Source: Candidatus Gastranaerophilales bacterium
GTDB taxonomy: Bacteria > Cyanobacteriota > Vampirovibrionia > Gastranaerophilales > Gastranaerophilaceae
Reading direction: 5' to 3'
Assembly (NCBI GenBank): GCA_944323685.1
Contig: CALUTJ010000003.1
Span: 67,342-131,341, forward strand
Length of the DNA: 64,000 nucleotides
In this document: positions 13,602-61,474 of the stretch, one piece after another
How positions within the stretch are numbered: the first letter of the stretch is position 1
Layout: the number at the start of each line of letters is the position of its first letter
Translations under genes and position numbers: made by a program
The notes under the pieces: generated by a model
Database searches by the model: none
What the model was told of the DNA's origin: nothing
The model's input: the letters and a program-made list of their open reading frames with translations, nothing else

Positions 13602-14279
13602 ATGATATCGCTTCAATACATAGGGCATAGTGCGTTTTACATAAAAACAGGCGGTTACGGGATTTTAATCGATCCGTTTATAACCGGCAACCCTAAAGCC
13701 GTTTTTGATTTGAACAACAATATAATTACAAATATTTTTGTAACTCACGGACACGGTGATCACCTCGGTGATGCGATACCGTTATCAAAATCACACAATG
13801 CTGAGATTTGTACAATTTTTGAGCTGGCTAACTACTGTATGTCAAAAGGTGCGAAAGCTCACGGTGCAGGTATGGGCGGGAAAATAGATTTCCCCTGGGG
13901 AAGCGCAAGGCTTTTGCCTGCTTTTCACAGCAGCTCTACCCCTGAAGGTTATTATGCAGGCATGCCTGCTTCTATTCTGTTTGACATAAACGGAACAAAA
14001 ATTTATCACGCAGGTGACACCTGTTTGAATTCAGAAATGAAAACTGTCGGGGAAATTTACAAACCGGATATTGCTCTTTTGCCGATAGGTTCTAACTATA
14101 CAATGGATATCGAAGAAGCAGTTGTTGCTTCAATCTGGCTTAATGCGAAGGAAGTTATCCCTATGCACTATAATACGTTTGATTTGATTAAAGCTGATGC
14201 GCTCAAGTTCAAAACGTCAATAGAAGCTCTGAATAAAAAATGTACGATTCTTAACCCCGGTGAAGGAATAAATCTTTGA
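13602..14279 (+). CDS. UPF0173-type metallo-beta-lactamase-fold hydrolase
   Basis: IGHSAFYIKT...ILIDPF...THGHGDHLGD contains the HxHxDH motif. Confidence 0.85.
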   Translation: MISLQYIGHSAFYIKTGGYGILIDPFITGNPKAVFDLNNNIITNIFVTHGHGDHLGDAIPLSKSHNAEICTIFELANYCMSKGAKAHGAGMGGKIDFPWGSARLLPAFHSSSTPEGYYAGMPASILFDINGTKIYHAGDTCLNSEMKTVGEIYKPDIALLPIGSNYTMDIEEAVVASIWLNAKEVIPMHYNTFDLIKADALKFKTSIEALNKKCTILNPGEGINL

Positions 14280-14293
14280 TAAACAATAAAAAA

Positions 14294-14415
14294 TGTCCGA
14301 GAAAAATTCGTGATAAGGAGCAAAGCGACGTGAACGAATTTTTGGAGTGTCACATTGAAAAGGTGAGCAGTGACGGCTCGAAGGCTCGAGGCGGCAACTG
14401 CGACACTAGATTAGA
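14294..14415 (+). repeat. 122-nt interspersed GC-rich repeat, copy A
   Basis: 97-98% identical to 18392-18513. 96% identical to the reverse complement of 52669-52790. Confidence 0.9.
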
Positions 14416-14428
14416 AAAAGCTGCATTG

Positions 14429-15388
14429 ATGATTATCCCGACAGGAGTCGGAGCATCTATCGGCGGTTATGCCGGTGATGCAAGTCTTTATGCACAAAAA
14501 ATAGCCAAACATATTCCTCTGATTGTCAATCCCAATATTGTCAATGCTGCGGTGTTTTCAGGTATTACAGAAAACATGTTTTATGTGGAAGGATTTGCGA
14601 TAGAAGAGTTTGTCAAAGGCAATATCGCTCTTGTTCCTTCAAAAAACAACAAAATAGGAATTATCTTTGACAGAGCAATCAGTCAAAGTGTTTTAAATAT
14701 ACATATAAACACGATAAATGCTCTTAAAACTGTTTACGGCATTGATGTAACAGGCTATGAAATCACTGAAGAAAGTGCGGGGGTTGAATTTTTTACAACT
14801 CAAAGCGGTGCTTCATCAGGCAGGGTAAATAACCCGCAAACTCTTTTAAAAGCCGGGCAAAAACTTTTGGATAACGGAGCTAATGCGCTGGCTGTTGTTT
14901 GTGCGTTTGAAGAACCGCCTGAAGATGATTACGAAAACGGGGACGGTGTTGATATTGTCGGCGGTGTTGAGGCTGTAATATCTCATTATCTGACTAAAAA
15001 GCTTATGTGCCCCTGTGTACACGCACCCGCATTTGAAGATGTAACAATTACGGACAAAAAAGTTAATCCTAAAGTCAGTGCGGAATATATTACCCCAACG
15101 TTTTTGCCATGTCTTTTGTTCGGGTTAAAAAACGCTCCGATGCTTGTAGATTTGAACAATACAAAACCTCCGGCAAATAGCATTACCGTGAAAGATTTGC
15201 ATTCTGTATCAGTGCCTTATAATGCCCTCGGGTCAAGTGTTGTTATGGATGCTCTTGCTGCTGATATTCCTGTTTATGCAGTAAAAGAAAACTCTACTGT
15301 CTTAAATATCGACAAAAGTATTCTTAATTTATCTGAAATTAAGGAATTGCAAACATACGAAGATTACGTAAAAGTACTGGATAATTAA
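14429..15388 (+). CDS. DUF3326-like protein (cyanobacteria/plant-type family, from memory)
   Basis: MIIPTGVGASIGGYAGDA... The track ORF starts at TTG 14276, but its first 51 codons are the intergenic repeat, which is non-coding in the other copies. ATG 14429 is therefore preferred. Confidence 0.6.
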   Translation: MIIPTGVGASIGGYAGDASLYAQKIAKHIPLIVNPNIVNAAVFSGITENMFYVEGFAIEEFVKGNIALVPSKNNKIGIIFDRAISQSVLNIHINTINALKTVYGIDVTGYEITEESAGVEFFTTQSGASSGRVNNPQTLLKAGQKLLDNGANALAVVCAFEEPPEDDYENGDGVDIVGGVEAVISHYLTKKLMCPCVHAPAFEDVTITDKKVNPKVSAEYITPTFLPCLLFGLKNAPMLVDLNNTKPPANSITVKDLHSVSVPYNALGSSVVMDALAADIPVYAVKENSTVLNIDKSILNLSEIKELQTYEDYVKVLDN

Positions 15389-18267: not shown

Positions 18268-18344
18268 ATTATTTATATATCCTCTCTGGTTATATTATAA
18301 TGCAATAGAACATAATTTAAAAGATTATTTATAAAAACAAGAGC

Positions 18345-18373
18345 TTTAGATTTAAACTAAACTGCGATACAAT
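18345..18373 (+). promoter_or_regulatory. sigma-70-like promoter candidate upstream of repeat copy B / tRNA-Arg
   Basis: TTTAGA-17 nt-TACAAT. The predicted start is about 12 nt before the repeat. Confidence 0.35.
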
Positions 18374-18391
18374 ATATTTCAAAACAATAGT

Positions 18392-18513
18392 TGTCCGAGA
18401 AAAATTCGTGATAAGGAGCAAAGCGACGTGAACGAATTTTTGGAGTGATACATTGAAAAGGTGAGCAGTGACGGCTCGAATGCTCGAGGCGGCAACTGCG
18501 ACACTAGATTAGA
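18392..18513 (+). repeat. 122-nt interspersed GC-rich repeat, copy B (tRNA leader)
   Basis: Differs from copy A at 3 positions. Ends 5 nt before the tRNA-Arg 5' end. Confidence 0.9.
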
Positions 18514-18518
18514 TATAT

Positions 18519-18592
18519 GTGCCCGTAGCTCAGCCGGATAGAGCGTCAGCCTCCGAAGCTGAAGGTCGGGGGTTCGAATCTCCCCGGGCATA
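18519..18592 (+). tRNA. tRNA-Arg (anticodon CCG)
   Basis: Hand-folded cloverleaf: acceptor GTGCCCG/CGGGCAT (G1-U72), D arm GCTC/GAGC, anticodon arm TCAGC-CTCCGAA-GCTGA, T arm GGGGG-TTCGAAT-CTCCC. CCA is not encoded. Confidence 0.9.
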
Positions 18593-18659
18593 TTTTTAAT
18601 AAATATAATAAATAAATTTTATATTATAATTGGAAATATAAAATCAACAGGAATAAATT

Positions 18660-45397: not shown

Positions 45398-47185
45398 ATG
45401 GACAGTTCAAAGTTAAGAAATATAGCCATCATTGCCCACGTTGACCACGGCAAAACAACGCTTGTGGATTGTATGTTAAAACAGTGCGGTGTATTCAGAC
45501 AGAATGAAGTTGTGCAGGAACGTGTTTTAGACAGCAATGATTTGGAACGTGAAAGAGGTATTACAATCCTTGCCAAAAACGTTTCGGTTCACTATAAAGG
45601 TTACAAAATCAACATTGTCGACACCCCGGGTCACGCGGATTTTGGCGGCGAGGTAGAGCGTGTTTTAGGCATGGTAGACGGCGCACTCCTAATCGTTGAT
45701 GCGGCAGAAGGCCCTATGCCCCAGACAAGATTTGTTCTGCAAAAAGCTCTTGAACTCGGCATAAGAGTTATTGTGGTTATAAACAAAATTGATAAACCGG
45801 CAGCAGACCCTGATGAAACATTGAACAAAGTATTCGACCTGTTTACGGAATTGACTGATGATGAGTATTTAATAGATTTTCCTGTTATTTATTCAAGCAG
45901 CCTGCACGGTTTTGCAAAAAAAGAACTTACAGACGAATCAAAAGACATCATACCTCTGCTGGATTCTATTATTGAAAATATTAAACCTCCGCTTGCCGAC
46001 GCAACAAAAGATTTGCAATTCCACGTAACAACACTGGATTATAACGAGTATGTCGGCAGAATTGCGATAGGCAGAATCGTTAACGGTTCAATTAAATCAC
46101 AGGAGATAGTCAGCCACATCCACACAGACGGCTCAATCACAAGAGGTAAAGTCGTTAAGCTGTTTGGTTTTGAAGATTTGGGGCGTGTTGAAATTAAAGA
46201 AGCGCATGCCGGAGATATTGTCGGCATAGCCGGTTTCCCCGATGTACAGATAGGTGAAACAATCGCATCTCTTGAAAACCCTCAGGCTTTGCCGTTGATA
46301 AAAATCGATGAACCTACTTTGCAGATGAATTTTTCTGTTAACAACAGTCCTTTTGCCGGTCAGGAGGGTAAATTTGTTACTTCAAGACAGTTGAGAAAAA
46401 GACTTTATCAGGAACTAGAGAAAAACGTATCTTTAAGAGTCGAAGATACAGATTCTACTGACGTTTTCAAAGTTTCAGGCAGGGGCGAGCTTCATCTGAG
46501 TATTCTTATTGAAACAATGCGCCGTGAAGGCTTTGAATTTCAGGTTTCTAAACCGGAAGTTATCTACAAAACCATTAATGAAGAAACTTACGAACCTTAT
46601 GAAGACCTGCTGATAGACGTTCCGGAAGAATGCGCCGGCGGATGTATTGAAAAACTTGCAGGCAGAAAAGGCGAAATGCTGGAAATGCAGGCAGTCGGGA
46701 CACGTTCTAAAATGAGATTTTTAATCCCGTCCAGAGGGTTAATCGGCTTTAGAGGCGAGTTCATCAGAATGACACGCGGTGAAGGTATCATGAACCATAC
46801 ATTTGCGGAATATAAACCATATGCCGGTGATATCAACCGCCAGAGAATGGGTTCTCTTATTGCACATGAAGAAGGCGAGGCAGTACCTTATGCTCTTGCT
46901 CAGTTTGAAGACAGAGGCGTGTTCTTTGTTACTCCTAAAACAAGAGTATACAGGGGTATGATTGTTGGCGAATGCAACCGTTCTCAGGATATTCCCGTTA
47001 ATGTGTGCAAAACTAAAAAACTTACAAATATGAGAACAGCCACAGCTGATGTTATGGTTACTCTGCAAGCCCCGAGAATACTTTCTCTTGAAGAGTGTCT
47101 TGAATATATCTCAGATGACGAGCTTGTGGAAGTTACGCCTAAAAATATCAGAATGAGAAAGTATGATCTTGTTAAGTTAAGATAG
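45398..47185 (+). CDS. typA: translational GTPase TypA/BipA
   Basis: RNIAIIAHVDHGKTTLVD, DTPGHADFGGEVER, NKIDK. 595 aa. Confidence 0.95.
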   Translation: MDSSKLRNIAIIAHVDHGKTTLVDCMLKQCGVFRQNEVVQERVLDSNDLERERGITILAKNVSVHYKGYKINIVDTPGHADFGGEVERVLGMVDGALLIVDAAEGPMPQTRFVLQKALELGIRVIVVINKIDKPAADPDETLNKVFDLFTELTDDEYLIDFPVIYSSSLHGFAKKELTDESKDIIPLLDSIIENIKPPLADATKDLQFHVTTLDYNEYVGRIAIGRIVNGSIKSQEIVSHIHTDGSITRGKVVKLFGFEDLGRVEIKEAHAGDIVGIAGFPDVQIGETIASLENPQALPLIKIDEPTLQMNFSVNNSPFAGQEGKFVTSRQLRKRLYQELEKNVSLRVEDTDSTDVFKVSGRGELHLSILIETMRREGFEFQVSKPEVIYKTINEETYEPYEDLLIDVPEECAGGCIEKLAGRKGEMLEMQAVGTRSKMRFLIPSRGLIGFRGEFIRMTRGEGIMNHTFAEYKPYAGDINRQRMGSLIAHEEGEAVPYALAQFEDRGVFFVTPKTRVYRGMIVGECNRSQDIPVNVCKTKKLTNMRTATADVMVTLQAPRILSLEECLEYISDDELVEVTPKNIRMRKYDLVKLR

Positions 47186-52659: not shown

Positions 52660-52668
52660 GTTGTTATA

Positions 52669-52790
52669 TCTAATCTAGTGTCGCAGTTGCTGCCTCGAGC
52701 CTTCGAGCCGTCACTGCTCACCTTTTCAATGTGCCACCCCAAAAATTCGTTCACATCGCTTTGCTCCTTATCCCGAATTTTTCTCGGACA
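52669..52790 (-). repeat. 122-nt interspersed GC-rich repeat, copy C
   Basis: The reverse complement differs from copy A at 5 of 122 positions. It lies between the ftsB-like stop (52803) and the terminator. Confidence 0.9.
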
Positions 52791-52802
52791 AACTTAAAAT
52801 AT

Positions 52803-60946: not shown

Positions 60947-61070
60947 AGATTTCCCCCCCTACTATAAAAATCCTTTATATGACAAAATTTATACAGCTAT
61001 ATTAGCATATATATGTTAAAAATAAAATTATTTGTCCGCATACGGAAATCACCGCCCGCAAAGAATAATT

Positions 61071-61247
61071 TCTAATCTGGTGTCGCAGTTGCCGCCTTGA
61101 GCCTTCGAGCCGTCACTGCTCACCTTTGCCTTCTTTTTCGGCTGAACTGTGGTGAAGCCTGAAAAATGGCTTCACTATGTGAACAATGTGCCACTCCAAA
61201 AATTCGTTCACATCGTTTTGCTCCTTATCACGAATTTTTCTCGGACA
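61071..61247 (-). repeat. 122-nt interspersed repeat, copy D, carrying a 57-nt insertion (61127-61183)
   Basis: The flanks align to copies A-C. The insertion TTGCCTTCTTTTTCGGCTGAACTGTGGTGAAGCCTGAAAAATGGCTTCAC... resembles 2281-2335 of the tandem repeat. Confidence 0.85.
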
Positions 61248-61474
61248 TATTAAGCTGTTATTTTATAGGATATTTTGCAGACCACAAAAATAGTCAGTCA
61301 TGCAGAACTACTCTACGAGTACCCTCCCTTGTAAGCCTCATTATATTCGGTAACAAGAGGAGCTGCAAGTTCAGCGACGACCGGGTGGGGTTGTGAAACC
61401 CACTAAAACATGTCCAAACGTCATCCTTAGAAGTGAGCGAAGCGACCTCATGAGTTTTATAAAAATATTTTACA

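Follow-up and report, generated by a model that had tools for sequence, protein, structure and literature searches.

BOX elements of Streptococcus pneumoniae, arranged as boxA-boxB(n)-boxC, are short non-coding intergenic hairpin repeats that are often co-transcribed and do not encode a transposase themselves. The Correia/NEMIS repeats of Neisseria and the ERIC/IRU repeats of enterobacteria measure 100–180 nt, reside in untranslated parts of transcripts, with which they are co-transcribed, and form stable RNA folds. A small RNA piece can also be released by tRNA processing, as is the case for 3'ETS-leuZ of E. coli, and the 5' leaders released from tRNAs are normally degraded fast. Searching the literature, we found no close precedent for repeats in bacterial tRNA leaders and nothing relevant on repeats in Melainabacteria.

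Here we analyze a 64,000-nucleotide stretch of a Candidatus Gastranaerophilales genome (the window), in which a repeat copy, termed copy B, lies directly upstream of the gene for tRNA-Arg(CCG). The genome that contains the window (G000) is a 2.31-Mb assembly in 44 contigs. We compared it with relatives from its genus of uncultured gut Gastranaerophilales, coded G001–G043, and with the MAGs CASFNW and CASFCQ. We find it probable (about 0.8) that copy B is an incidental, lineage-specific insertion of a high-copy non-coding mobile repeat into the 22-nt leader of tRNA-Arg(CCG). The present leader would thus be long because such a repeat inserted into an originally 22-nt leader.

Copy B, the probable promoter and the predicted transcript

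The features of the locus and the sister copies of the repeat in the window are listed below.

18293–18301, plus strand: remnant of an older promoter region, shared with the species that have a 57–85-nt HIT-tRNA spacer (intergenic alignment of G024, G008, G003 and G043 with G000)
18345–18350, plus strand: TTTAGA, -35-like hexamer of the putative tRNA promoter (consensus scan and comparison with G021, G020, G009 and CASFNW)
18368–18373, plus strand: TACAAT, putative -10 hexamer, invariant in five species; predicted transcription start near 18380
18392–18514, plus strand: copy B, short form, sense (boundaries from three filled/empty site pairs)
18515–18518, plus strand: ATAT, what is left of the original leader on the tRNA side of the insert (these 4 nt and the 18 nt on its other side add up to 22 nt, as in G021)
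18519–18592, plus strand: tRNA-Arg(CCG), no CCA encoded (Rfam, ARAGORN)
18566–18600, plus strand: T-arm/acceptor stem with a T run behind it, resembling a terminator at the end of the tRNA transcript (consensus scan)
14294–14415, plus strand: sister copy A, short form (repeat search)
52665–52791, minus strand: sister copy C, short form (repeat search)
61068–61251, minus strand: sister copy D, long form, with a 55-nt middle hairpin module (repeat search)

The tRNA-Arg(CCG) gene, the sole tRNA gene in the window, scores 66.8 bits at 18519–18592 with Rfam and is placed at 18518–18593 by ARAGORN. Its 3' end passes straight into a T run (18592–18600). Copy B (122/123 nt) extends from TGTCC at 18392 to GATTAGA ending at 18513, and is followed by TATAT (18514–18518) and then by tRNA +1. 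It contains two autonomous hairpins (about 18400–18441 and 18460–18505), has a predicted folding energy of -37.8 kcal/mol (z = -4.3 compared with shuffled sequence) and shares 97.5% identity with the short-form consensus and 92–96% with the three other copies in the window. TTTAGA and TACAAT are separated by a 17-nt spacer, and the pair is located ~18 nt upstream of copy B. An earlier sequence-only reading of this DNA had reported a repeat-tRNA junction with 5 nt (TATAT) before +1 and a TTTAGA-17-TACAAT motif about 20 nt upstream of the repeat. Direct reading confirms the junction, the repeat ending 4–5 nt before the tRNA, and the motif is present at the measured distance. The remnant at 18293–18301 overlaps the divergent promoter of the HIT gene, and the consensus scan returns promoter-like sites on both strands there.

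TTTAGA-17-TACAAT reaches a score of 9/12 in the consensus scan. The scan finds 6 promoter-like sites in 500 nt, compared with 2.1 ± 1.3 in shuffled sequences, and the hexamer match by itself is therefore weak. TTTAGA or TTTTGA, at exactly 17 nt from TACAAT, precedes tRNA-Arg(CCG) also in G021, G020, G009 and CASFNW, and the upstream promoter is probably real, because four other species keep hexamer pair and spacing in front of this tRNA. From TACAAT to tRNA +1 we count 22 nt in G021, 26 nt in each of G020 and G009, and 37 nt in CASFNW. The distance in G000 is 18 + 123 + 4 nt; without the insert it is 22 nt, as in G021, which argues for a clean insertion into a short leader.

We also noted a ~107-nt unit upstream of tRNA-Arg(CCG) that is repeated in tandem in G020 (L042:1-225), G009 (L043:2268-2474), G001 (L064:2376-2582) and CASFNW (L155:5340-5470). 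The unit is made up of 14 nt from the tRNA 5' end, a hairpin that precedes a T run, the promoter with TTTAGA/TTTTGA-17-TACAAT, and the leader. It resembles a promoter cassette that duplicates the tRNA 5' end, of which G000 and G021 retain the promoter part only.

In neither copy B nor the long form of the repeat did the consensus scan detect a sigma-70-like promoter or a terminator-like site on either strand, and this makes read-through of the element, followed by RNase P removal of a ~140-nt leader, likely. The predicted fold of 18380–18592 keeps both element hairpins apart from the acceptor and T arms of the tRNA and leaves 12 nucleotides unpaired before +1. Conservation of the promoter, together with the lack of internal promoters and terminators, suggests that the primary transcript proposed previously (about 12 nt, the element, 5 nt and the tRNA) is probably right. 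Removal of the leader by RNase P, also part of that proposal, is to be expected, as the gene for RNase P RNA is present in G000. tRNA-Arg(CCG) is encoded by the only gene with that anticodon in the assembly, and CGG codons are in use (0.96 per 1000, in 420 of 1411 long ORFs); the tRNA must therefore be expressed. The RNase P RNA gene itself (G000:C29:1-482) is cut by the contig start, and a long-form copy on the minus strand (C29:306-482) directly follows its 3' end.

In the insertion model we favor, transcription would start near 18380 from the conserved upstream TTTAGA-17-TACAAT and would pass through the element, which appears terminator-free in this orientation. RNase P would then cut at tRNA +1, and the ~140-nt leader would be a by-product without a dedicated function.

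The junction in relatives and at other tRNA genes

The der locus was retrieved from each of the 27 remaining genomes of the genus, along with separate tRNA-Arg(CCG) loci. The order HIT (minus strand), tRNA-Arg (plus strand), der (plus strand) is kept in G024, G043, G008, G003 and G001. G021 retains the HIT-tRNA adjacency, G020 and G009 retain the tRNA-der adjacency, and the tRNA is inverted in G016 and G013. The spacer between HIT and tRNA measures 57–85 nt in four species (G024, G008, G003 and G043), 135 nt in G021 and 251 nt in G000. No element is found before tRNA-Arg(CCG) in any of the 10 readable relatives (G021, G024, G008, G003, G043, G001, G020, G009, G016 and G013). A scan of metagenomes with the 23-nt promoter word returned no match to strains of the same species with or without the insert.

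Only one of the 32 tRNA genes in G000, that for tRNA-Arg(CCG), has an adjacent element copy (another tRNA has a copy 337 nt downstream), and this is 1 of about 160 element loci in the genome. The sequence-only reading had described the repeat as a conserved tRNA leader, or as a module that uses tRNA-type processing, and had named beforehand, as a refuting observation, a junction that relatives do not conserve. We ran this test and found the junction kept in 0/10 relatives; with 1 of ~160 loci adjoining a tRNA, neither description is borne out.

The same comparison bears on whether the junction exists in the cell, since a MAG assembler may join unrelated regions through a repeat, and 23 contig ends that stop inside this repeat indicate that it does confuse assembly. 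The two flanks, HIT gene and promoter on one side and tRNA and der on the other, are however neighbors in at least five relatives, which argues against a chimeric join, and the insert-free leader of 22 nt has exactly the length found in G021. We regard the chance of an assembly artefact as practically negligible.

A second case of a repeat in a tRNA leader is found in the MAG CASFCQ, where a short-form sense copy lies 12 nt downstream of a TATACT box, with 15 nt left between it and tRNA-Glu(CTC). In G000 the orthologous site has the same promoter and no insert. This independent insertion, at a different tRNA and in another species, shows that insertions into leaders happen repeatedly and are tolerated. 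Given ~22 copies next to gene starts and a tRNA share of ~2% among the genes, ~0.4 leader cases would be expected per genome by chance, and one per genome is therefore no excess; that two tRNA leaders were hit independently could still hint at some preference.

The ~140-nt RNA could alternatively be a stable, processing-released small RNA with its own function, for example in pairing with antisense sister copies in transcripts. Such an RNA would follow from the architecture of the locus, the element is well folded (z = -4.3), and about 40% of the copies between same-direction genes are antisense, so that targets would exist; the arrangement at tRNA-Glu in the second species is of the same kind. 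The absence of the junction from all 10 relatives and its occurrence at a single one of the ~160 loci argue against this possibility, as do stems that are no more constrained than loops, a G-U excess that is not clearly strand-specific when one variable column is left out (see below), and the fast degradation that is normal for released 5' leaders. Taken together, a small RNA function of this leader appears very unlikely.

A modular repeat family with polar ends

A BLAST search with copy B against G000 returned 258 matching segments, far more than chance would give, which merge to about 160 loci and occupy close to 1% of the genome. We distinguish 30 short (~123 nt), 99 long (~180 nt) and 31 partial loci. 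The long form corresponds to the short form plus the middle hairpin module, and one consensus is common to both. Contig ends cut 23 of the 31 partial loci, and the other eight, which are internal, are all deletion derivatives. Conversely, 23 of the 88 contig ends stop inside the repeat, most of them within the middle module or beside it, making the repeat a main cause of assembly fragmentation. Of the 122 matches to the middle module 116 lie inside the element, and its six diverged relatives include tandem units at 2281–2330 and 2619–2668 of the window. The first hairpin module is found alone, as a near-perfect palindrome in which the left end is inverted at the right, at G000:C10:2657-2706 and C8:63226-63290. 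These lone variants suggest that element modules are able to exist as separate units.

Exact 26-nt words of the element are present in at least 10 MAGs labelled Candidatus Gastranaerophilales. Within the genus, 23 of 24 further genomes have element-like matches, compared with 1 of 16 outside the genus within the same order, and the modules combine variously among the relatives' genomes. No family in Rfam 15 recognizes the element at its gathering score, the tRNA being the only feature in the window to pass; a long copy searched with permissive settings returned chance-level snoRNA matches only (E = 1.2–6.2). Element copies of G021 and G000 are 97–100% identical, whereas their der DNA is only about 83% identical, which points to constraint or horizontal spread (or a hot spot). 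One site is occupied in both genomes, by a long form in G000 (C29:3914-4092) and by a short form in G021 (C4:34804-34929). This insertion need not be of common descent, as the variant shared by the two copies is present in 6 G000 copies.

The ends of the element were defined from three filled/empty site pairs (L162 compared with C7, L176 with C20, and L165 with C5). In each pair 122–123 nt are inserted and nothing is duplicated, the inserted unit being TGTCC...GATTAGA plus one base. We found no terminal inverted repeats: the left (TGTCC...) and right (...GATTAGA) ends are not complementary, and the element has internal hairpins only. Exact flank matches indicative of a target duplication are not above shuffle expectation among 129 copies (best z of 2.9 among 80 settings). 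Over 6 nt the left flank consists of A and T only, with A in 95% of the copies at position -4; it has no strict tetranucleotide and resembles the element's own 3' end. The fixed orientation and the lack of a target duplication argue against a cut-and-paste DDE transposase. Oriented insertion 3' of an A/T-only hexamer without duplication rather points to a single-strand or site-specific route.

Of the transposase families searched for in G000 (Y1_Tnp, TnpB, IS110 and rve), we found Y1_Tnp alone, represented by one intact gene (C43) and two truncated ones (C11). The intact gene (G000:C43:84-620) encodes a RAYT, or REP-associated tyrosine transposase (NF047646, 144.7 bits). The truncated copies (C11:40895-41311 and 46453-46869) are identical to each other and located 5.5 kb apart. 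In the relatives, RAYT genes are flanked by a separate, canonical GTAG-type REP with a short G+C hairpin, of which G000 has 33–43 copies. An element lies within 1.5 kb of RAYT at one of nine RAYT loci (in G000, ~1 kb away), and G009, G022 and G010 harbor many element copies with no RAYT found. We downgraded RAYT as a candidate mobilizer, since in relatives it is flanked by another REP and is present or absent regardless of how abundant the element is.

We compared the two strands and the two ends of the element with respect to neighboring genes. Between same-direction genes, 36 copies genome-wide are in sense and 23 in antisense orientation (p = 0.12), and co-orientation with the genes is thus not strict. 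By crude ORF calls, sense stop codons are found 0–10 nt before the left end in 26/62 cases compared with 4/49 at the right end (p = 7e-5), and sense start codons 0–35 nt beyond the right end in 21/67 cases compared with 2/54 at the left end (p = 1e-4). This polarity could reflect a role of the element ends inside transcripts; it is unexplained by the promoter and terminator scans. A terminator in antisense orientation was rejected as its cause, as the scan returned no such site for either strand of the short and the long form.

The frequent position of the right end 0–35 nt upstream of sense starts (21/67, compared with 2/54 for the left end) would also be expected if that end carried an outward-facing, mobile promoter that drives the tRNA and the genes downstream of sense copies, and the right-terminal TAGATT does fit TANNNT. 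The sequence located 17 nt upstream of TAGATT is however G+C-rich, unlike a -35 box, and the scan of both strands returned no sigma-70-like site in either form. At tRNA-Arg(CCG), G000 has kept the conserved upstream promoter intact, and a start at ~18517 would leave a leader of 1–2 nt. We consider a mobile promoter unlikely.

Substitutions among the copies amount to 2.9% at paired and 2.8% at unpaired positions. Selection at the RNA level was considered and rejected, as stem and loop substitution rates are equal and the G-U excess on the plus strand (83 compared with 59) is mostly due to one column.

The first-hairpin loop of the consensus (for example 18409–18420 onward in the window) contains TGA-TAA, followed by a Shine-Dalgarno-like GGAG and by GTG, and one frame of the consensus is open from the GTG region of this loop to the right end. 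The stops in this first-hairpin loop frequently terminate upstream ORFs, with overlaps of 20–21 nt. Ten element copies lie inside called ORFs, eight on the same strand (including copy A, in the ORF at 14276–15388) and two on the opposite strand.

A reading of the whole family would regard the element as a polar module that is tolerated or selected in transcripts, with a stable, structured ~140-nt RNA, which RNase P would release at strongly transcribed sites such as the tRNA-Arg(CCG) leader, acting in trans on >100 sister copies, sense or antisense, in other transcripts, as a regulatory network. We judge this to be highly improbable. Returning to the incidental insertion, very little is at stake in the presence of copy B in this leader itself. 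The leader of a tRNA gene can accommodate 123 nt of structured insert, as has happened in the lineage two times or more, which provides a modest natural test of RNase P permissiveness. The repeat family is more interesting than the single insertion, as it makes up ~1% of a 2.3-Mb genome, has no marks of DDE transposition and is oriented to gene ends.

Comparison with known systems

The element lacks both terminal inverted repeats and a target duplication, two criteria by which MITEs are recognized. As to a third, a longer autonomous relative sharing the ends, the eight internal partial copies are deletion derivatives, and searches for rve, IS110 and TnpB genes returned none. It differs in the same way from the Correia repeats, which have terminal inverted repeats and a TA duplication; both were looked for in the element and are absent. 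Miniatures of the IS200/IS605 group (PATE and the cyanobacterial Nezha) share with the element subterminal hairpins and an apparently oriented insertion 3' of a short target without duplication. The element's target is however a hexamer that is A/T-rich but loosely defined, a single base reaching 95%, its two end hairpins are unlike each other, and we found neither TnpB nor an IS200-type TnpA associated with the element's ends.

The RAYT-mobilized REP/BIME/REPIN repeats resemble the element in their hairpins, in lacking terminal inverted repeats as well as a target duplication, and in their mosaic modules, and a RAYT is encoded in G000. The unit of the element is 123–180 nt and its hairpins are unlike, and the consensus of neither the short nor the long form has at either end the REP/BIME hallmark, a GTAG-like tetranucleotide beside a 20–40-nt hairpin.

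Spacers of the 3'ETS-leuZ type are kept at their locus, whereas the long leader of tRNA-Arg(CCG) is a species-specific insertion at a site that is not conserved. BOX has no sequence relation to the element, which has 0 or 1 middle modules and polar ends, and the host phyla differ. In their organization the two are alike: the element, as BOX, is a many-copy, non-coding repeat built from hairpin modules, with modules 1 and 3 at the sides and, optionally, a 55-nt module between them.
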